Positions 21,259 to 46,520 of a DNA stretch of 64,000 bases are shown here, piece after piece. The translations under genes and the position numbers were made by a program. The first letter of the stretch is position 1. Every line of letters starts with the position of its first letter. The DNA is from an uncultured Eubacteriales bacterium (GTDB lineage: Bacteria; Bacillota; Clostridia; TANB77; CAG-508): positions 4,962 to 68,961 of the forward strand of contig CASEIZ010000065.1 in NCBI GenBank assembly GCA_949288185.1, written 5' to 3'. Below the pieces are notes generated by a model. It was not told where the DNA came from. It saw only the letters and a list, made by a program, of their open reading frames with translations, and did no database searches.

Positions 21259-21290
21259 AAAGGGCTTTTGGGGACGGACTCAAAAATCCC
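21257..21290 (+). repeat. Solo copy of the GGGGACGGAC repeat family
   Basis: aaaaagggcttttggggacggactcaaaaatccc, immediately after the ABC-F stop codon. Confidence 0.7.
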
Positions 21291-21330
21291 GATTGTAAAA
21301 TCTGTTGGATATAGGAGGAAAACTGATTTT

Positions 21331-21816
21331 ATGGAAAGAGTAGATAAAGTAAATTACTATTTAGACATTGCGGAAAGTGTGGCAGAAAGAGGAACATGTC
21401 TTAGAAATAATTATGGCAGTATTATTGTAAAAAATGATGAAATTATTTCAACAGGATATACAGGAGCCCCAAGAGGAAGAAAAAATTGTATTGATTTAGG
21501 ATATTGTACAAGACAAAAATGTGAAATGCCAAGTGGAAAAGGATATGAAAGATGTAGATCTGTGCATAGTGAACAAAATGCCATTATTAGTGCAGCAAGG
21601 AAAGACATGATAGGTTCTACATTATATTTAGTAGGAATCAATAAACGAAATGGAGAATATGTAAAAGATAATGAGCCATGTTCTTTTTGCAAAAGAATGA
21701 TTATTAATGCTGGAATTGAAAAAGTATATATGAGAGATACCAAAGAAGAATATCGAATAGAAAATGTAGATAATTGGATACAAAATGATGATACAATTTT
21801 TAAAGAAAAAGAATAG
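21331..21816 (+). CDS. comEB: dCMP deaminase (ComEB-type cytidine/deoxycytidylate deaminase)
   Basis: HSEQNAI zinc motif and PCSFCKRMIINAG. RBS GGAGGA lies before the ATG at 21331, so the track start at 21268 lies inside the repeat. Confidence 0.8.
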   Translation: MERVDKVNYYLDIAESVAERGTCLRNNYGSIIVKNDEIISTGYTGAPRGRKNCIDLGYCTRQKCEMPSGKGYERCRSVHSEQNAIISAARKDMIGSTLYLVGINKRNGEYVKDNEPCSFCKRMIINAGIEKVYMRDTKEEYRIENVDNWIQNDDTIFKEKE

Positions 21817-24013: not shown

Positions 24014-24036
24014 AGACGTGCCGATTTGGCACGTCT
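24014..24036. terminator. Bidirectional terminator between tex and the response regulator
   Basis: agacgtgcc-gattt-ggcacgtct. Confidence 0.65.
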
Positions 24037-25116
24037 CTATTGTTCTGGTTTATATTTTTCTTGTATTTCTTGTATTTCATCATAATGATTTCTTAAGATT
24101 TCCAAGAATAAATCATCTAATTCAGGATCAAATTGTGTTCCTCTACATCTTTCAAATTCTGAAATAATGGTATCTAAATCTAGAGAATTACGGTAAGCTC
24201 TTTTAGATGCCATAGCATCAAAGCTATCTGCAATCGTTGCAATTCTTGCTAAATATGGAATATCATTTCCTGCAAGTTTCCCTGGATATCCTGTTCCATC
24301 ATATTTTTCATGATGATGTTCAACAATTGGTAAGATATCATTAAATATAGAAGCATTTGATAAAATATGAACACCGATATTCGGATGTTGTTTAATTTGA
24401 GAATATTCTTCATCTGTTAATTTAGAGTCTTTTAGCAAAATACTATCTGGAACACCAATTTTTCCAATATCATGGAATAATCCACCAATTTCTAAAGTAT
24501 GTAAATCTTCATCTGATAATCCTAGTTTTTTGCCAATTAACACAGAATAAGCGGCAACTCTATCGGAATGTCCTCTTGTATATACATCTTTTGCTTCAAT
24601 TGTGTATCTTAAAGTTTTGATAGAATCTAAATATGCTTGTTCTAATTTTTCGTATGTATCAGACAATTTGGCATTTATCTCTTTAATTTCATTCATTTGT
24701 TTAATAGATTTGATACCTGACTCAATTAATAAAAGTAATTGGTCGAATTTATCACTTTTTTCACAATATCCTTGGATATCTAACCTTCTAATAGTTTCTA
24801 AAGGTGGAGCTAAATCTTTATGTCCTGTTAGTAATAAAATATATAAATCTTTATTAAATTTTCTGATTTCTTCAACAACTTGGTCTCCATGAAAAGGTGT
24901 CATGATAAAGTCTAAAATCATTAAATCAAAATGTTCTTCTTTTACAAGCTGAATAGCTTGTTGCGGGTCTGTAACACCAGTAAAATCATATCCAGAACGT
25001 TTTAAAAATATAGATAGAGAATCTACAATGCCTTCTTCATCATCCACAGCAATAATTCGATATGAATTATTTTCTATGTTTTCTGTATTTTCTACGCCAT
25101 GTAAATGTGTTCTCAT
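24037..25116 (-). CDS. Two-component response regulator with an HD-GYP phosphodiesterase output domain (RpfG-like)
   Basis: REC domain (VDDEEG..., DLMILDFIMTP, LLTGH). HD-GYP motifs GLFHDIGKIGVP and HHEKYDGTGYPGKL. Confidence 0.85.
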   Translation of the reverse strand: MRTHLHGVENTENIENNSYRIIAVDDEEGIVDSLSIFLKRSGYDFTGVTDPQQAIQLVKEEHFDLMILDFIMTPFHGDQVVEEIRKFNKDLYILLLTGHKDLAPPLETIRRLDIQGYCEKSDKFDQLLLLIESGIKSIKQMNEIKEINAKLSDTYEKLEQAYLDSIKTLRYTIEAKDVYTRGHSDRVAAYSVLIGKKLGLSDEDLHTLEIGGLFHDIGKIGVPDSILLKDSKLTDEEYSQIKQHPNIGVHILSNASIFNDILPIVEHHHEKYDGTGYPGKLAGNDIPYLARIATIADSFDAMASKRAYRNSLDLDTIISEFERCRGTQFDPELDDLFLEILRNHYDEIQEIQEKYKPEQ

Positions 25117-25371
25117 AATATCCTCCTTTTAAACTAAACTTTGAATTATTATATTCATAAAAAAAATAAAAATCAAGCTTTTTACACGATTTTATGTGTA
25201 AAAAACTCGATTTTTATGACTAGTTATTTTTTATAATTTTTGTAAAATATACAAAAAATCTAATTAAAAATACAATAAAAATAATAGGCAATTATGTGTA
25301 AATGTAAAATAATTATTTTGTTTTTTACAGAAAAAACAGAAACTATTCATAGTGTGATTTTACAAAAGATA

Positions 25372-27183
25372 TCATACTGGCAATATGATTGTAAAAGTAG
25401 TTCCTTTTCCTTCTTCTGACTCAAAAGTAATATCACCATTGAAGTGAGCTTTAATGGTAGAATATGACATATATAAACCTAACCCAGTACCATTTTTCCC
25501 TTTTGTCGTAATCATTTCCTTAAATAATTTATCTTGAACTTTTTTAGGCATTCCACTTGCATAATCTTTTACATGTATTAGAACATGATTATCTTTTGAT
25601 TCTAATATCAATTCAATATTTTTATTTTTTTCTCCATTATATGCTTGAATTGCATTAGAAATCATATTATTAATAACTTGAACCAAACTATTAATATCTC
25701 CATTAATAACGGTTTGCTCATTGGTTTTCATAGCAATATTTAAATAAATAATGGCATTTTTTAGTTCATGTTTCATTAAAATATCAACACGTTTTACTAA
25801 TTCATCAAGTGTAAAATGGACAGAAGCCGTTTCAGACAAAGTGACAGCTTGTCCTTTTACGGCGGTGATGATATCTGACATATATTCTGTATGTGTTTTT
25901 ATCTTATCAATCCAAGAAAACATATCTTTTGCAATATCATGATGGTCTTGATAAGTTACTCTTGGATCTTCGATAGAAGCATCATATTCTGATACTAAAT
26001 CGTGTAATCCTTCTGCTGCACCAGAAATAGACATAATAGGTGTTTTTAAGTTGTGAGCAATTCCACCAATTAATTGTCCAAGTGAAGCTAAACGTTCTCT
26101 TTCCATTAAAGTTTCTTGGTTATCATTAATAATTTTTAAATCGTGAATATGTTGAGAAATATCTTTAAATAAAATGAGTGTACCAAGAATAGAACCATGA
26201 GATTCAATTCCAGATATTTCTATATTAAAATATTTATCTACATTTATTACTTCTAATTGTATGGAAAATGTTTTATTAGTTGTTTTAGATTTCTTTATAT
26301 ATTCTTTAAAAAGATTATTATCTATTTTAAAATTGGTATTTTTTCCAAACATAGAGAAAAATTCTTTACCTCTTAATTTCGTATCACTTAGTCTAACCAT
26401 ATTTAGAAAAGTTTTGTTAAAATCGATAATTGTATTGTTTTCATCTAATACAATATATCCATCAGACATTCTATCAACAACTGTTTGTAAAGCAATTGGT
26501 GTAACATTTAAAAAGTTAAATTTTAAAATAGCTATTGAAAAGAATAGAACAGTTGTTGTAAAAGAGATTGGTGTTACATAAATACTCATTTCTATACCAA
26601 ATAATCCAACAATATTAATTGCTAAAGGAAAGATAACACCTAAAATTAAAAGTACAGATTGTTTTGAGAAGAATCCTGTATTTTTAATAGAGTATCTAAT
26701 CAAGTAAAATACACCAACAAAGATTAAGGCATAAGTGTACAAAGAATGTATAGGGAAATATGGTCCAAAAACCGTTTCAGAATTTAGGACAGCATATTTT
26801 ATATAGAACAAATGATGAAAATCATTTGTCCAAAGAATTAACAAGGTCAAAATTGGTATAATAAATAATAGTAAATATTTTTTAGTAAAGGTAATCTTTG
26901 TTTTGGCAAATGTTAATCCAAATGCTAGGAAAGCAATCGGCAAAAAACAAGTTCCTATATATACAAAATAATCAAAGTAAATAGGTTCAATATCATAAAA
27001 CCTAGGAATAATAATGGATAACATTTGTCCAATACAACAAATTAGTAAACAAATAATAATTGCGATAAAGCACCAATGAATTTGTTTTTTCTTTTTTACT
27101 TTTACATTGATAAATAATAATGTAAATAACAATAAAGTAGATATTAATAAAGCAACTAAAGCGGCATTACCAACTAATACCAT
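25372..27183 (-). CDS. Sensor histidine kinase: N-terminal 7-TM domain, PAS-like domain, HisKA and HATPase
   Basis: About 7 hydrophobic helices in the first ~225 aa. H-box GGIAHNLKTPI, N-box ISNAIQAY, G-boxes DYASGM / GTGLGLY. The RBS is embedded in the last NRPS codons. Confidence 0.85.
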   Translation of the reverse strand: MVLVGNAALVALLISTLLLFTLLFINVKVKKKKQIHWCFIAIIICLLICCIGQMLSIIIPRFYDIEPIYFDYFVYIGTCFLPIAFLAFGLTFAKTKITFTKKYLLLFIIPILTLLILWTNDFHHLFYIKYAVLNSETVFGPYFPIHSLYTYALIFVGVFYLIRYSIKNTGFFSKQSVLLILGVIFPLAINIVGLFGIEMSIYVTPISFTTTVLFFSIAILKFNFLNVTPIALQTVVDRMSDGYIVLDENNTIIDFNKTFLNMVRLSDTKLRGKEFFSMFGKNTNFKIDNNLFKEYIKKSKTTNKTFSIQLEVINVDKYFNIEISGIESHGSILGTLILFKDISQHIHDLKIINDNQETLMERERLASLGQLIGGIAHNLKTPIMSISGAAEGLHDLVSEYDASIEDPRVTYQDHHDIAKDMFSWIDKIKTHTEYMSDIITAVKGQAVTLSETASVHFTLDELVKRVDILMKHELKNAIIYLNIAMKTNEQTVINGDINSLVQVINNMISNAIQAYNGEKNKNIELILESKDNHVLIHVKDYASGMPKKVQDKLFKEMITTKGKNGTGLGLYMSYSTIKAHFNGDITFESEEGKGTTFTIILPV

Positions 27184-27187
27184 AATA

Positions 27188-30100
27188 TTAACCTCCTATA
27201 AGCCCAAGTGCTTTTAAATAATCTAAATATTTAAACAAATAGGTTTTATCAATTGTGCACCATTTAAAAGACAACTTGGTCAAAAATTCATTTGTAAAAT
27301 CATTATTTAATATGACATTTGAATCATATATTAATTTTTTATTTGTATCAAAATCATTAATAATTCCAGATAAATCATTTTCATTGTTTACCAATGTTTG
27401 ATTTACTTTTTCGATAAATTGATTTTCAGGTAAAATATCAATATTAATTCTATATTGTTGAAAAATAGAAATCATTTTTTCCATAGGAATGTGATTACTA
27501 TTATATACATGTAATACGGTATATGGATGACTATATTTTACAATTCTAACAATAGCATCTGCCACATAGTCAACAGGTGTAAATTCACAATAACCATCTA
27601 ATAGATAATCTGGTATAGCACCTAATTTAATAAAGGTAATAATTCTATTTACAAAGGCATTTTCTGAAATATTAATTTGAAATTTACCATCAGAATAACG
27701 ATTGGTGATATTACCTAATCGAATGATTGTACCTTGCAGTTTTTTCTTTTGAATCGCTTCTAGAATACATTTTTCAGCCATGAATTTTGTATATACATAT
27801 ATATTTGAGATATCCTGTTTAATATATAAATTAGATTCTTTAAATGTGGTTTTTTCTTCTACAGAAGAATCAGAAAAACTACCTTCTGAAAAGACATTAC
27901 CAGAAACACTTAATGTTGATAAGTGATATAGAGGAATCTGTAAATTACTACAAAAATCAATAATATTATTGACACCATTGATATTAATTTTATCAAATTC
28001 AGTTGATTTTCCATAATGTTTTACAATGGCTGCACTATTAATCACACAAGAAAGATTTTTGGTTAATTTTTGAAAATCCTCATCAGCAATTCCTAAGTTT
28101 TTAAGAGTAATATCTCCACGTACCATTTTAATACGAGAACCAATTAAATTATGATATTTGTTTCCAAAATAGAATTGCATAATTTTATATAATCTATCTA
28201 TATAAGAAACATTATTTTTATTACGGACTAGGCAATAAATGGTTGCATCTGTCATATTTAGTAGTTTTTCTAAAATATGAATACCAACAAAACCTGTAAC
28301 ACCAGTTAAAAGTACATTTTTGACATTGGTTTCTCTAAAAGTTTTCAAAATAGGTAATGTATTTATTTTTAAAACTTCATCTATTTTAGAATAATCATAT
28401 GATTTGATAGCTAATTTTGCTTTGTCATCATCACGAACACCGATTTTTTCTGATAATTTCTTTATTGTAGAATGTGAGAAAATATCAGAATAAGAGATAT
28501 CTAGTCCTTGTTTAAAAGCTTGAATTTGTAGTTTAATCGCAATTAAAGAATCTCCACCTAATTCAAAGAAATCATCATTAATTCCTATTTTATCAATATT
28601 TAGTAAATCTTTCCATAAGTCAACTAGTTTTTTCTCAAAATCATTTCTAGGTGCTTCATAATTTGTATTTTCTTTAATTTTTACAGATGCCAAATATTTT
28701 TTATCAATTTTTCCATTGGCTGTTAGAACAAATTTCTCCAATTGTATAAAATGATTTGGAATACTATATAAAGGTAATTTCATAGATAAGAAATTACGTA
28801 AGTCATTGATAATAATCTTATTTTCAGCTGTGAAATAGGCAACTAAAGATTTTGTGTTTTTGCTTTCCTTTACTAAAACAATACATTTTGTAATAGAAGG
28901 ATAGTTTAAAATACAATTTGATATTTCACTTAATTCAATTCTGTGTCCATTTAGTTTAATTTGATTATCATCTCTTCCAATAAAAGAAATATTGCCATCA
29001 GGTAATCGTTTTACAACATCACCAGTTGTATACATGATTTCATCTTCATGGAATGGAGATGGTATATATTTTTCTTTTGTTAATGTCTTTTTATTTAAAT
29101 ACCCTTTTGAAACATTGTCACCAGCAATATATAAAGTTCCAGGAATACCATTTGGTACTAAATTTAAGTCTTTATCTAATATATATCCATGTAAATTATA
29201 TAAAGGTTTTCCGATAGGAATAATGTTATATTTTTTACAATTTGATGGTGTAACTTGAAAAGCAGTTGAACAGATGGTGGTTTCTGTTGGACCATATCCA
29301 TTAACGATTTTCATAGAAGGATTTAACTCAAAATATTTTTGTATAATAGATGTTTTGATTGGTTCAACACCGATTAATATTTTTTCTAAATGTGTTTTCT
29401 TATTATTTTGAGATAAGATAACATATACTTCATTTAAAATATTTGGAGGAAGATATGCCATCGTAATTTTTTCATCTATTAATGTGTTACAAAAATCAAA
29501 TATATCTTCAATGGTTTCATATTTATATAAATAAAGAGTAGCACCATTTAACAATGTAAAGAAGAATTCCCATATACTAACATCAAAAGCAATACTTGTA
29601 CTTGCTAAACAAATATCATTTGTACTAACAGAATCACTATATAATTTGTTAAAACTATGGATAAAATTATTCAAGTTTTTATTCATCACAATAACACCCT
29701 TAGGATTTCCTGTAGTTCCAGAAGTATAAATACTATAAATAGGATCATCAGGTAGTGTGTGAACAGAAATATCAGTAGCACTATATGTATTTAAATCAAT
29801 GTGATTCATATGTACGGTTTGTACTGGTAAATCTAAAGTATATGCATCTGTAATTAATAATGCTGCCTTAGAATCTTCTAGGATATAGCCAATCCTATCC
29901 TCTGGAAAATTCTTAGAAATTGGTAAGTAAACAGCACCACATTTCATGATAGATAACATGGCAACAATTAAGTTTGTAGAACGATTTAATAAAGTGGCAA
30001 CATAATCTCCTTTTTGAATACCTTTTTTTATTAAAAAGTTACTAAATTGATATACTTTATCTTTTAATTGTTTATAGGTTAAAGTATTTCCATTATCATT

Positions 30101-33100
30101 AAGAGCAATAGCATTTGGGTGTTTTCTTTCTTGCTCTTCAAATAATTCTATAATACTCATATCTTTTGGATATTCTAGTGATTGATTGTAGCAAGTTTTT
30201 AATATAGTATCTTTTTCTTCATCAGATAACATAGATACATCAGAAATTTTCATATCTATATTATCAGTAATACAATCCAATATTTGGATATAATATTTTA
30301 AGAAATCTTGCATAAATTTCTCACTATATAATTTTGTTGAATATTCCAAATTTAATCTATAAAAGTTTTTTTCAGGTGTGATTTCTAACATAAAGTCAAA
30401 TTTTGATGTGTTGGTGTTTGGTGTATAGATATCTGTATGTAATTTTCCAAAATCAAGTTCTATTTTTTCTTCATTTTGAAAAACAAACATCGTATCAAAT
30501 AATAGATTCCTTGATAAATCCCTAGGGATATCTAATTCTTCCACCAATTTATCAAATGGATATGCTTGATGTTCAAAATCTTCTAAACAGTGTTTGGTTA
30601 TTTCATTAACAAATTCCTTGAATGTCTTCGTAGAATCTATTGTATTGAATAATGCCAAAGTATTAACAAACATACCAAGCGTATGACTAAATTCCTTAAC
30701 TGTTCTATTGGCTACAGGTGTTCCTACAATAATTTCATTTTGGTTGGTATATTTATATAAAAGAATATAATATACACATAACATAAATATATATGGAGTC
30801 GTATTTAGTTGACTGCATAAAGTAGATATTTTACCAATATCTGAAATATAACTTTGCACACGATTACCTGTATTAGAATAGGTAGAAGGTCTTGGATAAG
30901 TTGTTGGCATGTTAAGCACAGGTATATCAGAAGAAAATTTAGATTTCCAATAGTCTTTATCAGATTGATAAAGTTTGCTATTAAAATAGTTTTCTTCATA
31001 TACGGTATAGTCTTTATAATCAAAGTCCTCTGTAGAAAGTTCTTTACCATTATATAATTTGCAAAGTTCATCTGTAAAAGTGGCAATAGAAATTCCATCA
31101 CAAATAATATGGTGAAAATCTGTAAATAAGATAGATTTACCATTATTAAATCTCACTAATTGAACTCTAAATAATGGTGCTGTGCGTAAATCAAAAGGTT
31201 TTAAAAACTCATTAAATAAAGTATCTAAATGACTATATTCATCATCTAAAACTTCAAGTTTCATTTTATAATTTGGTAATATTTTTTGTTTAACATCATC
31301 ATCTTCAATAACAAAATAAGTTCTTAAAGCATCATGAGATGCAATTAATTGATTAATAGATGATTCTAATTTCTTTATATTTGGGACAGCATCAAAAAGA
31401 ATGCCACCAGGTGTATTATACATAAGAGAAGAGGGGGCTTTTTGAACTGTATAAAAGATTCTTTTTTGAGCAGATGTCAAAGGATAAGCGTCAGAAAATT
31501 TGGCTTTATATACAGGAATTACCATATTTTCTGAAGAACGAGCTTCTATATAATGGCTAAGAGAAGCAATGGTTGGGTAAGAGAAAATATCCTTTATTCC
31601 TAGATTGATATCAAAATCAGAACTTAATTTTGTAATGATTTTGATGGCAATTAGAGAATCTCCACCTAATTCAAAAAAGTTACTATCAATACTGATATTC
31701 TCAACACTTAAAAATTCTTCGAAAACAGAAGCCAATGTTTTTTCTAATTCTGTTTTTGGAGCTATATAGATATCATCTACGACAATTTCTGGTAATTTTT
31801 TTGTATCGATTTTACCATTAACAGTTAATGGTAATGCTTCCATAAATACAATATGAGTAGGTATCATATAATGTGGTAAGCGTTTAGCAAGTGAATTTTT
31901 AATCTCTGTAGCATCTTCTTGTGAAGAAACAATAAAGCTACAAATGGTATCAATGTTATGAATTTTTCTTACAATTGTTACACTATTATGAACATCAGGT
32001 AATGTTTTTATCGCATTATTAATTTCTTCTAATTCAATTCGTAAACCTCTAATTTTTATTTGAAAATCATTTCTACCAATATATACGATATCACCATTGG
32101 CAGTCCATTTTGCTAAATCTCCTGTTTTATATAAAAGTCCTTTTCCAAAAGGATTTTTTACAAATTTCTTATTGGTTAATTCTGGATTATTGATATATCC
32201 TAAAGAAACACCATCACCTGCAATACATAATTCACCAACAATACCCATAGGGCATAAATTTAGGTCTTCGTCACAAATATAAATCTGCACATTAGGAAGT
32301 GGTTTTCCTAAATTAATATCTTGAGAATCGGTAATATATTTGCAAGTACAACAAGAAGTAGTTTCACTTGGACCATATCCATTATATATTTTTGCATTTG
32401 TAAATTGTGAAACTTTATCAAAAAATTTAGGGTCTAGTACTTCTCCTCCTAATTGAATCGCTTTTAAATGTTTCAAACAACCAGATGTGGTATTGTTTGA
32501 AAGTAATAAATCCATTTTAGAAGAGGTAATTAGCATAAATTCACAATTCTCTTTGTTAATTAATTTACTCATAGGAATTGGATTTTTTGATTGTTCTTCA
32601 TTGGCCAATATCAATTTTTTACCAGATAATAAAGCAATCCAAACTTCAGCTGCAAACATATCAAATGCGACAGAACAGATACTTAAAAAATTAGAAAGTG
32701 AGTCTGTGTGCATAGAATATTTGTAGCCATTTACGAGATTAATCATACTAAATCTTTTAATTAAAACACCTTTTGGCAATCCAGTTGAACCAGAAGTATA
32801 TACAACAGATAAAGAATCTGTAGGTTTATCTTGAATTGGGATTTCTTGGTTAGATAGTTCTTCCCAATTTAATGTATCTAAATATACGGTGTTTGCAAAA
32901 TCTAAATAATTTACATCATAAGCTGTCAATAATAAAGGAGATTTTGCATTTGTAAGCATATATTGAATTCTATCACTTGGTAAATCCTTTTCAATTAGCA
33001 TATATGTCATGTTGGCTTTTAATATAGCTAACATAGAAATAATCGTGTTGGCAGAACGATTTAGCATAATACCAATCACACTATTTTTAGGTAAGTTTAA

Positions 33101-34600
33101 AGATAATAGATAATTGGCTAATTTGTTAGACAATACATCTAAAGCTTTGTAAGTATAGGTTTCATCTTCAAAAATCAATGCTAAAGAAGATGCATTTTTT
33201 TCTACTTGTTTTTTGAATACCTGTAAAATGCTCTCATTTCTATCATAATCTAAATTTGTATGGTTAAAATCTTTTAAAATCAACTGTTTTTCTTCTTTAT
33301 CTGTGATTTCTACATTTGATAAAGGAATTTCAGGATTTTGTAAGACGAAATCTACCATAGATAAAATGCGAGAATGCATATGAGAAATATCTTCTTCATT
33401 AAATTTATTGATTTGGTAATCATAGAAAATATCTAAAGTTCCTGTATTATCCATATCATAGAAATGAACTTCTAAGGAATCTAAAGTATGACCACTTTCT
33501 ATCCATTTTGAGTAATAATGCACATCAGAAGATTTTCTTTCATCTCTTGCATTTTGATAAGAAAGTACCAAATCATAAGGACTTTCTGTAAGATTATGTT
33601 TTTGCTTAATATACTTTAATAATTTATCATAAGGATATTTTTGGTGTTTAAAGATAGACATTTGCATACCAGCTACTGTTTTTAGAAATTCAGAAAAAGG
33701 TTGTGTCTTATCAATGTCTACTTTAAATGGAATGGTACTAATAAACATACCAGATGTACGTTTTTCTTTTACACCACTTCTATTTAAAACAGGAGTACCA
33801 ATAATAGGAGAAGTGGCATGATTTATTTTAGATAAATATAGAGAATAAATTGCCATAAAAAATGTATAAACAGAGCAATTTGAAGCTTTACATAAATCTA
33901 AAATTTTTGTATATATATCATTAGATAATTTGAAAATTTTTCTTTTTGCTCTTGTATCTAATTCATGTTTATTTTTATTAGAAATATAACAAACATCAAA
34001 TTCATTATCAAAAAGTGTATGCCAAAATGCTTCATCTTTTTGATAACGAGATGAAGATATATAGTTTTCTTGTGAATGAATATAATCAATGTAAGAAGGG
34101 AATTTAGAATCATCTATTTTCTCATTTTTTAGAAGTGAAGAATAAAAGTCCATAACTTCATTGATTAATAGACTCATATTCCATGCATCAGCAATTAGGT
34201 GATGTAAAGTGGCATTAAATCCACCTGTGCCATCTGGTAATTGGAACATGGTAAAAGAAAATAGAAAAGAATGAAAAAGAACAAATGGTTTTTCTACAAT
34301 TTTTTTATTAAATTCAGTTACTTCATCTGAGTTTTTTAAAGAAACCAAATCAATAGATAAATTAGAAAAATCTTCTACATATTGATAAGGTGTACCATTT
34401 ATCAATTTCAATTTTAAATGTAAAGAATCGTTTTTTTGTGCATATAAATTTAAAGCTTTTTCTAAAAGAGAAAAATTAACTTTATCTTTGATGAATACAT
34501 AACCACCAATATTGTTAAGATTTGAATTACTGAAAAATAGTTCTGTATCCCAGATATTCTTTTGTGAGCTTGTTAATTCATAAATATTATTTTCTAACAT
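27188..34600 (-). CDS. Dimodular nonribosomal peptide synthetase, C-A-T-C-A-T-R (terminal thioester reductase)
   Basis: C1 HHLIADAW (aa ~146). A1 YTSGSTGLPKGV / NGYGPSETT / YKTGDLAKW / GRNDFQIKIRGLRIE. T1 GGDSL (Ser at ~31655-57). C2 HHIICDGIS (~31109-14). A2 YTSGTTGNPKGV / NGYGPTETT / GRDDNQIKLNGHRIE. T2 GGDSL (~28547-49). R domain LLTGVTGFVGIHIL and YVYTKFMAEK. The likely start is the ATG at 34600, preceded by GGAGGA. The track start at 34639 lacks an RBS. Confidence 0.9.
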   Translation of the reverse strand: MLENNIYELTSSQKNIWDTELFFSNSNLNNIGGYVFIKDKVNFSLLEKALNLYAQKNDSLHLKLKLINGTPYQYVEDFSNLSIDLVSLKNSDEVTEFNKKIVEKPFVLFHSFLFSFTMFQLPDGTGGFNATLHHLIADAWNMSLLINEVMDFYSSLLKNEKIDDSKFPSYIDYIHSQENYISSSRYQKDEAFWHTLFDNEFDVCYISNKNKHELDTRAKRKIFKLSNDIYTKILDLCKASNCSVYTFFMAIYSLYLSKINHATSPIIGTPVLNRSGVKEKRTSGMFISTIPFKVDIDKTQPFSEFLKTVAGMQMSIFKHQKYPYDKLLKYIKQKHNLTESPYDLVLSYQNARDERKSSDVHYYSKWIESGHTLDSLEVHFYDMDNTGTLDIFYDYQINKFNEEDISHMHSRILSMVDFVLQNPEIPLSNVEITDKEEKQLILKDFNHTNLDYDRNESILQVFKKQVEKNASSLALIFEDETYTYKALDVLSNKLANYLLSLNLPKNSVIGIMLNRSANTIISMLAILKANMTYMLIEKDLPSDRIQYMLTNAKSPLLLTAYDVNYLDFANTVYLDTLNWEELSNQEIPIQDKPTDSLSVVYTSGSTGLPKGVLIKRFSMINLVNGYKYSMHTDSLSNFLSICSVAFDMFAAEVWIALLSGKKLILANEEQSKNPIPMSKLINKENCEFMLITSSKMDLLLSNNTTSGCLKHLKAIQLGGEVLDPKFFDKVSQFTNAKIYNGYGPSETTSCCTCKYITDSQDINLGKPLPNVQIYICDEDLNLCPMGIVGELCIAGDGVSLGYINNPELTNKKFVKNPFGKGLLYKTGDLAKWTANGDIVYIGRNDFQIKIRGLRIELEEINNAIKTLPDVHNSVTIVRKIHNIDTICSFIVSSQEDATEIKNSLAKRLPHYMIPTHIVFMEALPLTVNGKIDTKKLPEIVVDDIYIAPKTELEKTLASVFEEFLSVENISIDSNFFELGGDSLIAIKIITKLSSDFDINLGIKDIFSYPTIASLSHYIEARSSENMVIPVYKAKFSDAYPLTSAQKRIFYTVQKAPSSLMYNTPGGILFDAVPNIKKLESSINQLIASHDALRTYFVIEDDDVKQKILPNYKMKLEVLDDEYSHLDTLFNEFLKPFDLRTAPLFRVQLVRFNNGKSILFTDFHHIICDGISIATFTDELCKLYNGKELSTEDFDYKDYTVYEENYFNSKLYQSDKDYWKSKFSSDIPVLNMPTTYPRPSTYSNTGNRVQSYISDIGKISTLCSQLNTTPYIFMLCVYYILLYKYTNQNEIIVGTPVANRTVKEFSHTLGMFVNTLALFNTIDSTKTFKEFVNEITKHCLEDFEHQAYPFDKLVEELDIPRDLSRNLLFDTMFVFQNEEKIELDFGKLHTDIYTPNTNTSKFDFMLEITPEKNFYRLNLEYSTKLYSEKFMQDFLKYYIQILDCITDNIDMKISDVSMLSDEEKDTILKTCYNQSLEYPKDMSIIELFEEQERKHPNAIALNDNGNTLTYKQLKDKVYQFSNFLIKKGIQKGDYVATLLNRSTNLIVAMLSIMKCGAVYLPISKNFPEDRIGYILEDSKAALLITDAYTLDLPVQTVHMNHIDLNTYSATDISVHTLPDDPIYSIYTSGTTGNPKGVIVMNKNLNNFIHSFNKLYSDSVSTNDICLASTSIAFDVSIWEFFFTLLNGATLYLYKYETIEDIFDFCNTLIDEKITMAYLPPNILNEVYVILSQNNKKTHLEKILIGVEPIKTSIIQKYFELNPSMKIVNGYGPTETTICSTAFQVTPSNCKKYNIIPIGKPLYNLHGYILDKDLNLVPNGIPGTLYIAGDNVSKGYLNKKTLTKEKYIPSPFHEDEIMYTTGDVVKRLPDGNISFIGRDDNQIKLNGHRIELSEISNCILNYPSITKCIVLVKESKNTKSLVAYFTAENKIIINDLRNFLSMKLPLYSIPNHFIQLEKFVLTANGKIDKKYLASVKIKENTNYEAPRNDFEKKLVDLWKDLLNIDKIGINDDFFELGGDSLIAIKLQIQAFKQGLDISYSDIFSHSTIKKLSEKIGVRDDDKAKLAIKSYDYSKIDEVLKINTLPILKTFRETNVKNVLLTGVTGFVGIHILEKLLNMTDATIYCLVRNKNNVSYIDRLYKIMQFYFGNKYHNLIGSRIKMVRGDITLKNLGIADEDFQKLTKNLSCVINSAAIVKHYGKSTEFDKININGVNNIIDFCSNLQIPLYHLSTLSVSGNVFSEGSFSDSSVEEKTTFKESNLYIKQDISNIYVYTKFMAEKCILEAIQKKKLQGTIIRLGNITNRYSDGKFQINISENAFVNRIITFIKLGAIPDYLLDGYCEFTPVDYVADAIVRIVKYSHPYTVLHVYNSNHIPMEKMISIFQQYRINIDILPENQFIEKVNQTLVNNENDLSGIINDFDTNKKLIYDSNVILNNDFTNEFLTKLSFKWCTIDKTYLFKYLDYLKALGLIGG

Positions 34601-34753
34601 TTTGTCCTCCGCGATTTTAAATACATTCATCATGCTCAATTATATAATTCCATTAAAAAAAAATCAACTAAATATTGTAAAATATTGTCGTCATATTAGA
34701 TAATTTGTTACAAAGTAAAACGATGAGATAGAAAATGATGTTACCTTTTTTAG

Positions 34754-34973
34754 TTTTGAAATTTTTACAAGCAAGGTGGTATGTATTATTTTTTGAATTA
34801 TTTCCTCGGCTTGCTACATAATTTATAACTTCTAAGTTTTAAATAAACGAGCCTCTCGCTGCTCGCGCTTCCTTATTTATTTAAAACTAAGAATTTATAC
34901 AATTATTCCACGGCACATTCGTCAATGAATTCAAAAAATAATACATACCACCTTGCTTGTAAAAATTTCAAAA
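34754..34973. repeat. Long palindrome: perfect 46-bp inverted repeat arms (34754-34799 / 34928-34973) around a 128-bp partly self-complementary spacer
   Basis: The reverse complement of the left arm ttttgaaatttttacaagcaaggtggtatgtattattttttgaatt equals the right arm exactly. The centre is GC-rich (cgagcctctcgctgctcgcgcttcc). Confidence 0.9.
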
Positions 34974-34991
34974 TTTAAATATTGTCATGTC

Positions 34992-35020
34992 TTGAAAAAT
35001 AAAAAGAATAACGATACAAT
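34992..35020 (+). promoter_or_regulatory. Promoter of the acyl-CoA ligase gene
   Basis: TTGAAA, 17 nt spacer, TACAAT. Confidence 0.45.
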
Positions 35021-35041
35021 GAAGAAAAAAGGAGGGAGCGT

Positions 35042-36769
35042 ATGGGAGATAATGAAAATAGAAAGGTGTATGAGCCAAGAGTTATAAAAAATTATAGGGA
35101 GATGATAGAATATTCTGTTAAAAATTATGCAGATAAAGTAGCCTATAAGTATAAGAAAAACGGAGATTTAAAACATGTAGAATATGTAGAAAAGACATAT
35201 GAACAAGTAGGAAAAGACATAAAAGCATTTGCGACAGAATTATTAAATAAAGGTTTAGAACATAAAAAAATTGTAGTTATCGGAAATAATCGATATGAAT
35301 GGTGTATTAGTTATTTGGCAGTTACAAGTGGAAATATGATTATTGTCCCATTAGACAAAGCGCTTCCAGACAATGAAATAGAAAATTTGGTAACAAGAAG
35401 TGAGGCAGAAGTAGCTATATTTGATAAAAAATATGTAGAGGTTATGAAAAAACTAAAGAACGATACAAATGTAAATTTAAAAATGTTGATTTGTATGGAT
35501 GACATAAAAGACAAGGATATAGAAAATTTTTCACAGTTATTGCAAAAAGGTGAGGAATTAGTAAAAAATGGAGATGACCGTTATGAAAAAGTAGAAATCA
35601 ATCCAGAAAAAATGTCTATAATGTTATTTACATCAGGAACAACCAATCTCCCAAAAGCGGTTATGTTATCTCAAAAAAATATATGTGCTAATTTGTCAGA
35701 TTTTGCTTCATGGGTAAAGCTATATCCAACAGACACATTACTTTCTTTTTTACCAATTCACCATACATTTGAATGTACTGTAACATTTCTTTATGGATTC
35801 TATAGTGGTTGTACAGTAGCTTTTTGCGATGGATTAAAATATATTCAAAAAAATCTGGCAGAATATAAAGTTTCCGTATTTGTTGCTGTTCCGTTAGTAT
35901 TAGAAACTATGTATAAAAAGATTCAAAAGGCGATTCATGACCAAGGAAAAGATAAATTAATCAATATGATGATAAAATTATCCAATGCACTTTTGAAATG
36001 TAAAATAGATTTAAGAAAAGTCATTTTTAAACAAATATTAGATAATTTAGGTGGAAATATTCGTTTAGTGCTATATGGATCAGCTCCTATGGACAAAGAA
36101 ACAATTGTAGGCTTTAACAATTTTGGAATTGCTCTAGTACAAGGATATGGATTGACAGAAACATCACCAGTTATTGCAGCAGAGTCAGATAAAGAGAAAA
36201 GACCAGGCTCTGTAGGCCTAGCTTTACCTAGTCTAAATGTAAAAATAGAAAATCCAGATGAAAATGGTGAAGGAGAAATTTTAGTAAAAGGACCAAGTGT
36301 CATGATGGGATATTATCATAATGAAGAAGAAAACAAAAAAGTATTTGTTGATGGTTGGTTTAGAACAGGAGATTATGGATATATAACAGAAGATGGATTT
36401 ATCTATGTAACAGGTAGAAAAAAAGATATAATTGTTTTAAGAAATGGAAAAAATGTATATCCACAAGAAATTGAAATTTTAATAAACAAACTTCCTTATG
36501 TAACAGAATCTTTAGTTTATCAAAGAGAAAAAGATAAAACAGATACGATGTTATGTGCTAAAATCGTATATGATAAAGACATCATAAAGGAAAAATTAGG
36601 AGAAAAAACAGAAAAAGAATATAAAGATAGCATTTGGAAAGAAATAAAAGAGATTAATAAACAATTGCCAGTATTTAAACATATAAAACAAATCACGATA
36701 ACAACAGAGCCTTTAATAAAAACAACAACACAGAAAGTAAAACGTTATGAGGAATTAAAAAGAGTTTAA
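35042..36769 (+). CDS. AMP-dependent synthetase / long-chain fatty acid-CoA ligase (FadD-like)
   Basis: LFTSGTTNLPKAVMLS, GYGLTETS, WFRTGDYGY and GRKKDIIVLRNGKNVYPQEIE. RBS AGGAGGGAG. Confidence 0.85.
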   Translation: MGDNENRKVYEPRVIKNYREMIEYSVKNYADKVAYKYKKNGDLKHVEYVEKTYEQVGKDIKAFATELLNKGLEHKKIVVIGNNRYEWCISYLAVTSGNMIIVPLDKALPDNEIENLVTRSEAEVAIFDKKYVEVMKKLKNDTNVNLKMLICMDDIKDKDIENFSQLLQKGEELVKNGDDRYEKVEINPEKMSIMLFTSGTTNLPKAVMLSQKNICANLSDFASWVKLYPTDTLLSFLPIHHTFECTVTFLYGFYSGCTVAFCDGLKYIQKNLAEYKVSVFVAVPLVLETMYKKIQKAIHDQGKDKLINMMIKLSNALLKCKIDLRKVIFKQILDNLGGNIRLVLYGSAPMDKETIVGFNNFGIALVQGYGLTETSPVIAAESDKEKRPGSVGLALPSLNVKIENPDENGEGEILVKGPSVMMGYYHNEEENKKVFVDGWFRTGDYGYITEDGFIYVTGRKKDIIVLRNGKNVYPQEIEILINKLPYVTESLVYQREKDKTDTMLCAKIVYDKDIIKEKLGEKTEKEYKDSIWKEIKEINKQLPVFKHIKQITITTEPLIKTTTQKVKRYEELKRV

Positions 36770-36815: not shown

Positions 36816-36865
36816 TTTTGACTAAAATCGAAAATATTGTAAATACTATTTTTGAGGTGATTTTA

Positions 36866-37999
36866 TTGAGAAGAGCCAAGAAAAAAAGTACTGGTAAAAA
36901 AATTATTATTACCACTATTGTTTTATTAATCATATGGTTATTAGGATTTTATATATATGTTACATATAATAATATAGAAATTTATGACGCAAATTATACC
37001 GCAGAAAAGACACAATCCACAATAGAGGAACAAACTGTGGAAAAAGTAGAAGAAGAAAGCAAAAATGTGGCAGATGTTATTGAGGAAACAGTCGAAAGTG
37101 TTGTAGGAATTTCAAAATTAAAAAATGCAGGGACATCTATTTTCTCGAATAGTACAGAAAGTCAATTAGGATTAGGAACAGGCGTGATTGTCACAGAAAA
37201 TGGATATATTTTAAGTAATGAACATGTAACAGGAAGTAAATATAGTAAATGTTATGTGACATTAGAAAATGGAAACAACTATAATGGAACAGTTGTATGG
37301 AGTGATTCAAATATTGATTTATCTATTGTAAAAATAGAAGCAAATAATTTAAAATATGTTACATTTGCAGATTCAGATAATATCAAAATAGGAGAAACTG
37401 TGTATGCCATTGGAAATCCAATTGGTTTTGAATTTAGAAGAACCGTTACTTCAGGAATTATCAGTGCAAAAAATAGAACAATCAAAATAGAAGAAGAGGA
37501 AAATGTATCTTATATGACAGATTTGATACAAACAGATGCAACAATAAATCCAGGGAACAGTGGAGGACCACTAATTTATCCAAATGGACAAGTGATTGGA
37601 ATTAATACAGTTAAAATATCTTCCGCAGAAGGAATTGGTTTTGCGATTCCGATTAATATTGTAAAACCAATTATTGAAAGTTATCAAAACACAGGAGATT
37701 TTCAAGAAGCTAAAATTGGGATATATGCCTATGATACAGAAGTGATACCATATTTAGAAACAGGAACTAGTACTAGTTTTCAAGAAGGAATTTATGTAAC
37801 AGAAGTAACGAAAAATGGACCGTCAGATACCGCAGGAATAAAAGAAGGGGATATCATTACACAAATAGATGATGTAGAACTAGAAACGATGAATGACCTA
37901 AGAGAATACATTTATACTAAGAAACCAAATGATGAAGTTACATTAAAAATTAATAGAGGAAAAATAAAAAGAGAAATTGTTGTAAAATTAGGGAAGTAA
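36866..37999 (+). CDS. HtrA/DegP-family serine protease with a PDZ domain
   Basis: Catalytic motifs SNEHV, DLSIVKI and GNSGGPL. The PDZ segment contains GIKEGDIITQIDD. TTG 36866 follows GAGGTGA, and the track start at 36818 abuts the repeat. Confidence 0.85.
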   Translation: MRRAKKKSTGKKIIITTIVLLIIWLLGFYIYVTYNNIEIYDANYTAEKTQSTIEEQTVEKVEEESKNVADVIEETVESVVGISKLKNAGTSIFSNSTESQLGLGTGVIVTENGYILSNEHVTGSKYSKCYVTLENGNNYNGTVVWSDSNIDLSIVKIEANNLKYVTFADSDNIKIGETVYAIGNPIGFEFRRTVTSGIISAKNRTIKIEEEENVSYMTDLIQTDATINPGNSGGPLIYPNGQVIGINTVKISSAEGIGFAIPINIVKPIIESYQNTGDFQEAKIGIYAYDTEVIPYLETGTSTSFQEGIYVTEVTKNGPSDTAGIKEGDIITQIDDVELETMNDLREYIYTKKPNDEVTLKINRGKIKREIVVKLGK

Positions 38000-39363: not shown

Positions 39364-39587
39364 TCAAAACACCTCTTAAAAATATATGAGAATAAAATGA
39401 AAATCATGACGACACTCGTGCAAAGAAATTAAAAAGAATGTTATCAAATGTTCTATAAATATATTTACGAAATCGAAAAATTATATTAAAATAAGTGTAA
39501 AGGGTTTCGTTTATGAATTGTAAGAGATAGCCATACAATGTAATGATAAATAGTATAGGAATAAAATTTTAATAAGGAGTGAAAATA

Positions 39588-40049
39588 TTGAATAGATATA
39601 TGGAATTAGCAAAACAAAATGCAGAAGATGGAATAAATAGGGGAGAAGGAGGACCATTTGGTGCAGTTATTATAGATAAAGAAGGACATATTATTTCAAA
39701 TGGAAACAACCAAGTCATAAAAAATAATGATCCAACAGCACATGCAGAAATTGTTGCGATTAGAGAAGCATGTAAAAAATTAAATACATATGATTTATCA
39801 GATTACATATTATATACGTCTTGTGAACCTTGTCCAATGTGTTTATCAGCAATTATTTGGGCAAATATAAAAGAAGTGTACTATGGTTGCACAAAAGAAG
39901 ATGCTGGAGAAATTGGTTTTCGAGATGATATGATTTATGATTATTTAAAAGGCAATAAATCTAATTTGATTGATTTGAAAAAAATGGATAGAGATGAATG
40001 TTTAGAAGTATTTAAAAAGTATAAAGAAACAGATGGAATTATTTATTAA
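39588..40049 (+). CDS. Guanine deaminase (GuaD-like CDA-fold nucleoside/nucleotide deaminase)
   Basis: GGPFGAVI, DPTAHAEIVAIREA and CEPCPMCLSAIIWA closely parallel B. subtilis GuaD as I recall it. TTG 39588 lies 8 nt after AAGGAG. Confidence 0.75.
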   Translation: MNRYMELAKQNAEDGINRGEGGPFGAVIIDKEGHIISNGNNQVIKNNDPTAHAEIVAIREACKKLNTYDLSDYILYTSCEPCPMCLSAIIWANIKEVYYGCTKEDAGEIGFRDDMIYDYLKGNKSNLIDLKKMDRDECLEVFKKYKETDGIIY

Positions 40050-40787: not shown

Positions 40788-42011
40788 TTATTTTTTTACC
40801 AATTCTATAAAAAACTCTTGGCCATTATATATGAAATGTAAATATAGTTCATCTGTCATATTATATTTCGTTAATTCAAATGAAAAAGTGGCTTTAACTG
40901 ATAAATTTTCTTTGTTAATTACCATTGTATTTCCTTCAATTAAACTGAAATCTTGATAAAATATTTCATCATTAGAATTTTTTATATAGACATCTTCAAA
41001 TAAATCTGGAGAAGATAGGCTTTCATCATAATTATTCTTTTTCCTTTCTGCATTAATGATATCTGTAATTTCTTGACTACTTTTTCCTTCTTCTCTAAGG
41101 TTATTTGCCAGTTTTTTATAATAAGAATCTTCATAGTCTGAGTTCAATTTGGCTTCTATTTGAACAGTAGATGTTGTGTTGTAAACAGAAACATTGTTTA
41201 TTATTACATCTGTATGATTACTTTCTTTAGGTGTATATAATGAAACTTCTCTATTATAAAATTTTTCGGGTATGTTTAATTCTATTTTCCAATGGCAGTT
41301 TAATTCTTCATCATTTATCATAAGATTCCTAATATTAATATATAATTTTTGACTTTTCGGATAACCATTTGAATAGAAATTATATATACAATTTGCTTCT
41401 GAATAATTTTCGCTTATTGTAGAGTAATAATTTAATCCACTATTTATATAATGAGAATTAAAATTGCCAAAAGTATCATCTAAGTGATTATTTGAACAGT
41501 ATTCATCAAACATAGATTGTTCATTACAGTATAAGATATTTTTATTTTCGTCACTAATTAAAATATTTTTGAAACTGATATCAGCAGATGTTTTATTCAA
41601 ACTTTCATCTAATTGAAGAGAAAAGTTTATTCCCAAAATATAATCATCCATCACAACTTCTGATACTTTCAATTTAATATTATCAGATTCTATGTAGTTC
41701 ATATTAGAATTTAAGATATAATCATTATCTATAGCATTTTGAATACTTTTACTATCACCAAAGAAGAATTTAGTAACAAAGTTTTTTATATCTTTTGCAT
41801 ATACAACTCCACTTGTTAAAAGTATGATGCACATTCCATATATGATAGCTTGTCTGAATTTTGTTTTAGGCTTGTAAGAATTCTTTAAACTTTGGCAGGT
41901 TAATTGAATATTATTTTTAAAACCTATAGGAATATCCCTATTAGAATTAAAGTAGGAATAACATAAATTATCGATGTTATCATTCTCGGAACTATTTGCT
42001 CTGAATTTCAT
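40788..42011 (-). CDS. Anti-sigma factor-like membrane protein (DUF4179-type)
   Basis: Overlaps the sigma gene 3' end. A short cytoplasmic N-terminus, a single TM (AIIYGMCIILLTSGVVYA) and a large extracytoplasmic domain. GGAGG lies 7 nt before the ATG at 42011. Confidence 0.6.
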   Translation of the reverse strand: MKFRANSSENDNIDNLCYSYFNSNRDIPIGFKNNIQLTCQSLKNSYKPKTKFRQAIIYGMCIILLTSGVVYAKDIKNFVTKFFFGDSKSIQNAIDNDYILNSNMNYIESDNIKLKVSEVVMDDYILGINFSLQLDESLNKTSADISFKNILISDENKNILYCNEQSMFDEYCSNNHLDDTFGNFNSHYINSGLNYYSTISENYSEANCIYNFYSNGYPKSQKLYINIRNLMINDEELNCHWKIELNIPEKFYNREVSLYTPKESNHTDVIINNVSVYNTTSTVQIEAKLNSDYEDSYYKKLANNLREEGKSSQEITDIINAERKKNNYDESLSSPDLFEDVYIKNSNDEIFYQDFSLIEGNTMVINKENLSVKATFSFELTKYNMTDELYLHFIYNGQEFFIELVKK

Positions 42012-42531
42012 CAGAAAACCTCCTTCCTTCATAATATTTTTTGATTTTTTCTTTTCCTCTTTTTAATCTACTTTTTACAGTATTAACATTTATCTTTAGA
42101 ATTTTAGATATTTCGCTACAGGATAACTGACTTCCATATTTTAAAGTAATAACTAAGTTTTCTTCATAGTTTAAATTTTTTAAGGCCAATTCAAAATCAA
42201 TTTTATTGTCGATATCATTTATACAATAGGAAGAGCTAAGTAACACATCAATTTCATTCTGATAATTGCTATTTTTAGACTTTTGCTTATATATTTTATT
42301 ACATTCATTTATAAGAATTCTAATAGCCCATGTTTTAAAATATTGATAATTTCTAATTTTATGGATATTTTTGTAAATATTGATAATCGTATTTTGCGTT
42401 GCGTCATTTATATCATCTATATTTTTTAAGCGAATGGAAGCTATTCTGTATAAATCATTTTCAATTGTTTGGATTAATTTCGTAAAGCTCTGAATATCAT
42501 TATTTTTAGAATTTTCAATTAAAGTTTCCAA
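41992..42531 (-). CDS. ECF-type sigma-70 family RNA polymerase sigma factor
   Basis: Region 2 (DDINDATQNTIINIYKNIHKI...FKTWAIRILINECN) and region 4 HTH (LSCSEISKILKINVNTVKSRLKRGKEKI). Confidence 0.85.
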   Translation of the reverse strand: METLIENSKNNDIQSFTKLIQTIENDLYRIASIRLKNIDDINDATQNTIINIYKNIHKIRNYQYFKTWAIRILINECNKIYKQKSKNSNYQNEIDVLLSSSYCINDIDNKIDFELALKNLNYEENLVITLKYGSQLSCSEISKILKINVNTVKSRLKRGKEKIKKYYEGRRFSDEIQSK

Positions 42532-42631
42532 TATGAACTAACCTCCTTCATATATTAGATATTCTAAATTAGAAAAATGGGTTCATAAATTAGCTATTTT
42601 ATAAAATTTAAAGGGATTATAAAAATAGAAG

Positions 42632-45026: not shown

Positions 45027-45041
45027 TAGAAATCCCCTTTT

Positions 45042-46149: not shown

Positions 46150-46226
<77 letters not shown>

Positions 46227-46477: not shown

Positions 46478-46480
46478 GAA

Positions 46481-46520
46481 GAAAGAACTGGGCTGATGAT
46501 AGTCAAGTTCTTTTTTTATT
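46481..46520 (+). terminator. Terminator after tRNA-Pro
   Basis: aaagaact...agttcttt hairpin followed by a T-run. Confidence 0.55.

Follow-up and report, generated by a model that had tools for sequence, protein, structure and literature searches.

A variable block of DNA that encodes a signal and, with it, the receptor part responsible for reading this signal characterises the agr specificity groups and the comQXP pherotypes. The reductase-terminated dimodular non-ribosomal peptide synthetases (NRPSs) of gut Clostridia form a family that was reportedly described by Guo and co-workers in 2017, and ruminopeptin is said to have been reported by Schneider and Balskus in 2018. The 64-kb stretch of DNA analysed here (64,000 nt; "the window" below) carries an NRPS gene of the latter kind, directly followed by a gene for a membrane-bound sensor histidine kinase and, further downstream, by a gene for a response regulator with an HD-GYP domain. 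We propose, with a probability of roughly 0.6, that this locus is a signal-synthase/receptor module, in which an N-acyl dipeptide aldehyde would be sensed by the cognate kinase and relayed to the hydrolysis of cyclic di-GMP (c-di-GMP). The locus is best described as a combination of two known kinds of system, namely a polymorphic signal-synthase/sensor cassette feeding a predicted c-di-GMP phosphodiesterase.

The work of Guo and of Schneider on the gut NRPS family has been summarised (PMC12327764, PMC8210680), and the family is reported to be widespread and transcribed in human stool samples. For members built from condensation (C), adenylation (A), carrier (T) and reductase (R) domains in the order C-A-T-C-A-T-R, the reported products are N-acyl aldehydes (PMC8518294); BGC0001686, an NRPS cluster from a Clostridium, yields N-octanoyl-Met-Phe-H in E. 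coli, and ruminopeptin is described as an N-acylated Leu-Glu aldehyde (PMC8518294). N-acyl dipeptide aldehydes made by NRPSs of this type are also treated elsewhere (PMC12327764), and pyrazinones have been reported from the same family of gut clusters (PMC12327764, PMC8210680). The NRPS of the window shares with this family the C-A-T-C-A-T-R order, the terminal thioester reductase, the leading C domain, the provenance from gut Clostridia and the expected N-acyl dipeptide aldehyde. On the other hand, its lineage is uncultured and of very low GC content (25–33%), and it is associated with a kinase partner and with allelic cassettes. In the literature open to search we found no account of an NRPS–kinase linkage, of an obligatory kinase partner or of allelic cassettes.

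The synthetase and the kinase are tightly coupled. In the window, the ATG of the kinase gene lies 4 nt past the TAA of the NRPS gene, and its GGAGG is embedded in the last NRPS codons; the two genes share one operon and are translated from the same message. All nine homologue lineages looked up from the NRPS side, whose identity ranges from 96% down to 40%, have the kinase next and a regulator with receiver (REC) and HD domains further downstream, and the gap between NRPS and kinase is 0–23 nt in most of the related loci examined individually. For the reverse search, a metagenome collection was scanned with an alignment of the N-terminal 350 residues of the kinase only, which yielded 80 loci. 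A same-strand NRPS R domain ends within ~90 nt of the kinase start in each of the 77 loci with at least 1.2 kb of upstream sequence, the remaining three having only ~200–300 nt. The NRPS–kinase pairing is invariant in all assessable loci, in both search directions. Furthermore, one locus (L021) retains kinase and regulator amid neighbours that are unrelated on both sides (recombinases, a GH94 enzyme).

The specificity codes of the two adenylation domains (A1 and A2) were read by aligning each domain to a segment of GrsA and then by column mapping in a 97-sequence MAFFT alignment of the family. The GrsA segment gives back the code DAWTIAAIC with the residue numbering under which it was published. 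The codes obtained for the window are DMALQGGSCK (A1) and DVWYLGGICK (A2), and both are confirmed by the family alignment. The family as a whole employs many different A-domain codes; some of them look like canonical Gly, Val, Thr and Pro codes according to the Stachelhaus table, and several others, among them both codes of the window, have no such canonical look.

The A1 code and the membrane part of the kinase change together. For comparison, the kinase was split into a seven-transmembrane (7TM) sensor (residues 30–230), a PAS domain (231–350) and a core (351–603). Many pairs of loci have cores that are 99–100% and PAS domains that are 96–99% identical, with 7TM regions of only 55–66% identity, and in these pairs the A1 codes differ. 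Among pairs with a core identity of at least 90%, all 117 that share the A1 code have a 7TM identity above 85% (none at or below this value); when the A1 code differs, the 7TM identity is at or below 85% in 60 pairs out of 63 and higher in the other three. The association was also evaluated by a partial Mantel test (37 loci after dereplication, 5000 permutations) that controlled for kinase-core identity. The 7TM identity correlates with the similarity of the A1 code (r = 0.48) and with that of the A2 code (r = 0.55), the observed value being reached by 0 of 5000 permutations in either case. Along the kinase, the allelic differences amount to 31–60% over residues 1–230, 11% in the PAS domain and 1% in the core; within the sensor they are spread across the membrane helices and are not restricted to loops.

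A second allele was found in the window's own species. The kinase homologue P0227 has a core 93% identical to that of the window kinase, and its 7TM and PAS regions are only 49% identical. It is encoded on a contig (L102) whose sample accession lies near the accession of the sample with the exact NRPS of the window. At the DNA level, L102 and the window are 100% identical from ~25749 through the catalytic and ATP-binding (CA) domain and the spacer, and 98–100% identical through the regulator down to ~24670, whereas the identity drops to 52–69% over 26230–32400, an interval with the sensor and as much of the NRPS as the L102 contig contains. The codes differ accordingly, those of L102 being (DIF)QIAGIFK-like and DAFFLGVTFK. 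Being 98–100% identical from the CA domain into the regulator and divergent in NRPS and sensor, the two sequences indicate that the window carries one allele of such a cassette. Its right-hand boundary is graded over ~26170–25810, from the PAS domain through the dimerisation and histidine phosphotransfer (DHp) domain into the start of the CA domain; the left-hand boundary is placed by reference to a sister species, in which it falls at the NRPS start (L031, L065, L096 and L059).

In these four loci, all from one species, the flanks, the kinase from PAS to CA, the regulator and everything downstream are 95–100% identical in DNA, and the segment from the NRPS start codon to about kinase residue 222 is only 50–75% identical: four alleles with four different A1 codes. 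In two other within-species comparisons (L045 with L063, and L030 with L085), divergent sequence is found in just two islands, A1 and the kinase sensor, separated by ~4 kb of DNA of 93–100% identity; in the pair L045/L063 the sensor island also covers the C-terminus of the R domain. The association between A1 and sensor is complete among the sampled contigs of the two-island cases (7 + 3 in one species). Between species the picture is reversed. In the pairs L030/L071 and L085/L047 the kinase cores share only 64% identity and the flanks cannot be aligned, while the NRPS and the first 400–600 nt of the kinase gene are mostly 93–100% identical (74–88% across part of module 2); the block of NRPS and 7TM sensor is transferred between species. 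The end of the sensor serves repeatedly as a cassette boundary, both in independent species and in the between-species transfers. Overall, the specificity of the synthetase and the sensor of the kinase are inherited, exchanged and diversified as a unit, and the signalling core stays constant.

Since the sensor switches with the A-domain choice of the synthetase, the product is probably a strain-specific cell-to-cell signal. Its path could be the following. The NRPS would condense an acyl donor (acyl-CoA or acyl-ACP, which an acyl-CoA ligase may supply where present) onto a first amino acid, add a second one and release the N-acyl dipeptide aldehyde by NAD(P)H-dependent reduction. The kinase, made from the same mRNA, would recognise this lipophilic product via its seven-helix membrane domain and phosphorylate the REC–HD-GYP regulator, with altered hydrolysis of c-di-GMP as the consequence. 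Synthetase specificity and sensor would co-diversify as exchangeable, pherotype-like alleles around a constant kinase core and regulator.

An AlphaFold (AF2) model of the kinase (mean predicted local distance difference test score, pLDDT, 72) shows seven N-terminal helices followed by a PAS fold, the DHp domain and the CA domain. Some close kinase variants (P0166–P0175) are 93–97% identical to the window in the 7TM region and 91–95% in the core, with 75–82% in the PAS domain, which may be a second variable module. The regulator, whose gene starts ~250 nt beyond that of the kinase, has the complete HD-GYP motif set (HDIGK and HHEKYDGTGYPGK), and its best NCBIfam match is the model "response regulator c-di-GMP phosphodiesterase", at a score below the cutoff. 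Pfam and the sequence show no domains in it beyond REC and HD-GYP, and none that would bind DNA. The sequence-only reading of this DNA had described a minimal cluster; it was right in that a Pfam scan of the remaining large open reading frames (ORFs) of the window finds neither a phosphopantetheinyl transferase (PPTase) nor an MbtH protein, but the co-transcribed kinase and the regulator directly downstream had been overlooked. With no PPTase in the window, priming of the carrier domains must come from elsewhere in the genome.

The window is strongly AT-rich (GC ~26%), and its longest ORF in this region is that of the NRPS (27188–34639, minus strand). The true start is the ATG at 34600, which has a GGAGG 5 nt upstream, and an identical protein of 2470 residues is recorded in an ENA metagenome scaffold. 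Relatives sharing the architecture are mostly ~2470 residues long, and hundreds of metagenomic proteins of ~2400–2540 residues have the same domain set. The closest genomes are metagenome-assembled genomes of uncultured Clostridia/Bacillota with isolate names suggesting animal guts (NRPS 89–97% identical, in one case 60%), and many related loci derive from human gut metagenomes. Pfam recognises Condensation, AMP-binding and PP-binding domains, two of each, and an NAD_binding_4/Epimerase domain at the C-terminal end. The core motifs are intact (positions in the 2470-residue numbering), and both carrier serines, Ser982 and Ser2018, are intact. Motifs A3, A5, A7 and A10 are present in both A domains; the A8 pattern used matched A1 only. 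The last 410 residues align over their full length with solved thioester reductases (6vtj, 196 bits; AusA R, 4f6c, 119 bits), and the Tyr-x-x-x-Lys pair (YVYTK) is conserved in this alignment, next to a TGVTGFVG motif. These data bear out the earlier description of two complete modules ending in a reductase of the short-chain dehydrogenase/reductase type, and, together with the architecture common to the published gut peptide-aldehyde family and the uncultured Clostridia as nearest genomes, its assignment to the reductase-terminated dimodular NRPSs of gut Clostridia. The nearest solved structure of the R domain, 6vtj, is a didomain of peptidyl carrier protein and reductase that scores well above the staphylococcal AusA R; it belongs to an archaeal NRPS from a rumen methanogen. 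This closeness hints at gene flow among gut anaerobes. Among the related loci, L097 apparently holds a single module (C-A-T-R) ahead of the kinase, and in L078, L088, L090, L092 and L093 the reading frame of the NRPS is interrupted close to the 3′ end; these variants could be pseudogenes or assembly frameshifts.

The most likely product is an N-acyl dipeptide aldehyde, because the leading C domain (C1) is intact. Its HHLIADAW motif agrees with the pattern HHxxxD[AS]W, which almost the whole family keeps; the second His is present wherever the motif aligns, and some relatives show NHxxxD. C1 scores 103 bits against the N-terminal C domain of MxcG, 67.5 against EntF and 52 against the internal C domain of AusA; C2 shows the reverse preference, with 299 bits against the internal C domain of AusA. 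The resemblance of C1 to N-terminal C domains that take their donor in trans, a matter of similarity and not of phylogenetic placement, supports acylation. The N-acylation deduced earlier from the leading C domain thus agrees with the intact, family-conserved C1, as a prediction. The pyrazinone considered earlier as a product is unlikely if C1 acylates, because its formation needs a free N-terminal amine. As for the two amino acids, the earlier A2 code (D-V-W-N-L-G-G-I-C) is right at all positions but the fourth, where N has to be replaced by Y. G occupies positions 301 and 322 in both pockets, pointing to large side chains, and A1 has no Trp239 and has Gln at 299. The A1 pocket might be compatible with a long neutral side chain such as that of Met or Leu, and both amino acids are tentatively predicted to be neutral or hydrophobic.

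AusA of S. aureus (A-T-C-A-T-R) shares with the window NRPS the T-C-A-T-R half, which aligns end to end, the R domain, which matches 4f6c, and the reductive release of a dipeptide aldehyde. In the match to the AusA equivalog model NF047350, the window protein reaches 1539.6 bits over model positions 900–2369 only, below the cutoff of 2500, and hence does not qualify as an AusA equivalog. AusA, however, has no leading C domain, so that its product cyclises to a pyrazinone, and to our knowledge it has no adjacent kinase gene. With agr (AgrBDCA) and comQXPA, the locus shares a hypervariable block in which signal synthesis and the membrane sensor domain of the neighbouring histidine kinase are encoded together, next to a conserved kinase core and regulator, with several alleles per species and alleles common to different species; the synthase is adjacent to the kinase and co-transcribed with it. 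The signal would here be made by an NRPS, while theirs derives from a ribosomal peptide, and the output of the regulator is an HD-GYP enzyme in place of their DNA-binding domain. In keeping with a regulator that has no DNA-binding domain by Pfam and an NRPS leader that has no riboswitch by Rfam, no autoinduction circuit is evident at the window locus; the Rfam scan returned tRNAs only, with no riboswitch or leader RNA at the NRPS.

The diffusible signal factor (DSF) system of Xanthomonas (acyl-CoA ligase RpfB, synthase RpfF, kinase RpfC and REC–HD-GYP regulator RpfG) resembles the locus in its presumed lipid-like diffusible signal, in the combination of a multi-pass kinase with a REC–HD-GYP regulator and in the ligase beside the synthase, and the regulator of the window has REC and the complete HD-GYP motifs. 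It differs in that the synthase of the window is an NRPS and not a crotonase, in that the host is a Gram-positive anaerobe, and in that the kinase is a plain 7TM-PAS-HisKA-HATPase protein, whereas the Rpf kinase is a hybrid with REC and histidine phosphotransfer (HPt) domains. Finally, the alpha-hydroxyketone systems CqsA/CqsS and LqsA/LqsS also place a small-molecule synthase beside a multi-helix membrane kinase, in whose membrane domain a lipophilic ligand binds; the chemistry and the synthase family are different, and we know of no comparable allelic cassette structure described for them.

The genes flanking the module are less constant. The divergent gene upstream of the NRPS codes for an acyl-CoA ligase-like protein whose best NCBIfam matches are long-chain fatty-acid-CoA ligase models, below their cutoffs. 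A ligase was detected in 6 of ~55 assessable metagenome loci; when present it always abuts the 5′ end of the NRPS gene, and in L099 it is co-directional and immediately upstream, with ~11 nt between the stop-to-stop ORFs. The divergent FadD-like ligase had been proposed as the partner of the NRPS: an AMP-binding protein is indeed there, but its scarcity among the assessable loci does not make it a regular partner. As a core gene of the cluster it was rejected, being absent from most related loci; it is better seen as an optional accessory, which may supply the acyl starter where present. Next to the ligase lies a gene for an HtrA-type serine protease (Trypsin_2 and PDZ domains; 36818–37999, plus strand), which is often found near the NRPS in other members of the family. 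HtrA was considered as a matched target of the product and rejected, as it is 95–99% identical between cassette alleles and shows no co-variation. The tex gene is another frequent neighbour of the NRPS loci. Because HtrA and tex recur, most loci lie at one syntenic site in a low-GC clade (25–33% GC); at this site the NRPS has diverged to 34–45% identity and Tex is still 72–89% identical. Between the divergent promoters of ligase and NRPS, the window has a nested palindromic element of ~230 nt (34748–34979; single copy in the window), with arms of 52 nt (96% complementarity) and, inside them, a second pair of 24 nt each. L002 and L003 carry it as well, L003 with an additional nested insert of ~130 nt. 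It has diverged in L004 and L006 and is cleanly missing from L007 and L008, and it looks like an insertion related to miniature inverted-repeat transposable elements.

Several readings other than a signalling module have to be weighed. The locus could be a stand-alone protease-inhibitor cluster, in which a ligase-primed NRPS makes an N-acyl dipeptide aldehyde that inhibits host or competitor proteases, with kinase and regulator co-inherited or sensing some other cue. The architecture and the literature on the NRPS family fit this idea, and so do the position of the ligase (always at the NRPS start where present, and co-directional in L099), the frequent HtrA-type protease nearby and the common position of most loci next to tex, which implies that part of the NRPS–kinase linkage is vertical inheritance. 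Yet it leaves unexplained why only the sensor domain switches with the A code, be it within species, in separated islands or across species. Moreover, the ligase is missing from most loci, HtrA does not vary with the alleles, and a regulator that has no DNA-binding output cannot act as a classical cluster regulator; we therefore consider this explanation rather unlikely. A second possibility is that the 7TM region is a mere passenger, either dragged along by a hot spot of NRPS domain swapping or diversified in its loops under phage or immune pressure, with no ligand–receptor relation at all. Indeed, the sensor directly adjoins the 3′ end of the NRPS gene, the C-terminus of the R domain often diverges together with it, the NRPS genes are mosaics of segments (in L065 and L096, C1 is common to both and the sequences differ after it), and the mapping of code to 7TM is imperfect across species. 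Hitch-hiking alone is nonetheless improbable, for the two-island cases, in which ~4 kb of nearly identical DNA (93–100%) separates A1 from a sensor completely associated with it in the sampled contigs, and the breakpoint recurring at the same functional junction, the sensor end, in independent species and in between-species transfers, argue against it, as does the spread of the differences through the membrane helices beyond the loops. A little less probable still is an un-acylated aldehyde which, with C1 inactive or devoid of a donor, would cyclise to an active dihydropyrazinone or pyrazinone, as with the aureusimines or the AI-3-type pyrazinones. The full-length alignment of the T1-C2-A2-T2-R half with the AusA model (NF047350, 1540 bits), the NHxxxD motif in C1 of some relatives and the pyrazinones described from the same cluster family (PMC12327764, PMC8210680) speak for it. 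They have to be set against the HHxxxD motif kept in C1, with its second His in every member in which the motif aligns, the resemblance of C1 to N-terminal C domains supplied in trans with an acyl or aryl donor, and the N-acyl aldehydes reported from C-A-T-C-A-T-R members (PMC8518294).

A number of observations weigh against the signalling module that we favour. In the published view such aldehydes act on host or microbial proteases, and this could be their main or an additional role. We infer the structure of the product, its role as the ligand of the kinase, the direction of signalling and the c-di-GMP output, and the identity of the ligand in particular would follow from the co-variation. 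Some co-variation is expected from linkage alone, because NRPS and sensor are adjacent. The match between code and 7TM is not one-to-one either: Pro-, Thr- and Val-like A1 codes occur with 7TM regions just 55–66% identical across species, and one 7TM allele (90–93% identical) occurs with two related codes. C1 is ambiguous between a starter and an LCL domain by comparison with the PDB (TycC6, 100 bits; solved starter C domains, 48–65 bits). The pairing of kinase and regulator rests on synteny, as a terminator-like hairpin and a promoter-like site separate their genes. Finally, neither a GGDEF protein, that is a c-di-GMP cyclase (Pfam scan of the ORFs), nor a c-di-GMP riboswitch (Rfam) was found in the 64-kb window.

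Coordinates of the features of the NRPS locus in the window
Feature	Position	Strand	Basis
GC-rich hairpin terminator between regulator and convergent tex	24014–24036		
Response regulator, REC + HD-GYP, 359 aa (HDIGK ... HHEKYDGTGYPGK)	24037–25116	−	Pfam Response_reg + HD_5/HD
Promoter-like site after the hairpin, ahead of regulator	25148–25176	−	
Hairpin with T run between kinase and regulator	25168–25215	−	
Sensor histidine kinase, 603 aa	25372–27183	−	Pfam HisKA_7TM, PAS, HisKA, HATPase_c; H-box GIAHNLKTP
Kinase, DHp + catalytic domain	25375–26133	−	
Kinase, PAS domain	26134–26493	−	
Kinase, 7TM sensor	26494–27183	−	
Hypervariable cassette: NRPS + kinase 7TM, PAS and part of DHp	25750–34600	−	L102 comparison
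NRPS gene, 2470 aa, C-A-T-C-A-T-R	27188–34600	−	Pfam domains, motifs, exact recorded protein starting at the same ATG
R, terminal thioester reductase (aa 2061–2470), TGVTGFVG at aa 2099 + YVYTK	27191–28420	−	Pfam NAD_binding_4, PDB matches
T2 carrier domain, GGDSL at aa 2015, Ser2018	28421–28645	−	Pfam, motif
A2 adenylation domain (aa 1476–1985), DVWYLGGICK	28646–30175	−	Code extraction
C2 condensation domain (aa 1031–1475), HHIICDGI at aa 1163	30176–31510	−	Pfam, motif
T1 carrier domain, GGDSL at aa 979, Ser982	31511–31765	−	Pfam, motif
A1 adenylation domain (aa 441–945), DMALQGGSCK	31766–33280	−	Code extraction
C1, N-terminal condensation domain (aa 1–440), HHLIADAW at aa 133	33281–34600	−	Pfam, motif
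Promoter-like site of the NRPS operon, TTGATT-17-TATAAT	34639–34667	−	Block kept in 7/7 close relatives
Acyl-CoA ligase-like gene, 575 aa, divergent	35042–36769	+	Pfam AMP-binding / AMP-binding_C_3

Further features of the window lie outside the module. Two ORFs resembling cytidine/deoxycytidylate deaminases flank the locus (21268–21816 and 39579–40049), one of them overlapping the start of tex. The group at 40788–45665 (minus strand) comprises a sigma factor of the extracytoplasmic function (ECF) type (41992–42531), an ABC-2 type transporter (42632–45665) and a protein of 414 residues that has no Pfam match and is possibly an anti-sigma factor; in other lineages these genes do not accompany the NRPS as a conserved group. 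The region ~46150–54300, with Fic, NUDIX, RepA_N, a Mob_Pre relaxase and an HTH regulator beside two tRNA genes (46153–46226, minus strand; 46402–46474, plus strand), looks like an integrated mobilisable element. It parts the NRPS region from a DAO-Rieske gene (59044–60540), which in several other loci is found near the cluster, just past the HtrA gene. At the edge of the window (100–5100, minus strand), ORFs resembling IstB/DnaA, DnaB_2 and TraG/TraD are probably part of another mobile element or of a prophage replication module.

The natural role of the gut NRPS family has so far been discussed mainly as protease inhibition. We see about an even chance that NRPS-made N-acyl dipeptide aldehydes are an unrecognised class of signals in gut Clostridia, encoded in matched synthetase–7TM pherotype cassettes with a c-di-GMP output, and that protease inhibition is secondary to, or runs in parallel with, a primary role in kin-specific communication. 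If so, the matched cassette would point to a native bacterial receptor for these aldehydes and would explain the fast diversification of A domains at a fixed chromosomal site. The natural allele pairs (the window and L102; L030 and L085) offer ready-made specificity experiments. In this case, Gram-positive quorum sensing would gain a non-ribosomal, lipid-like signal and a 7TM kinase, and small-molecule clusters of the gut would be linked to the control of behaviour by c-di-GMP.

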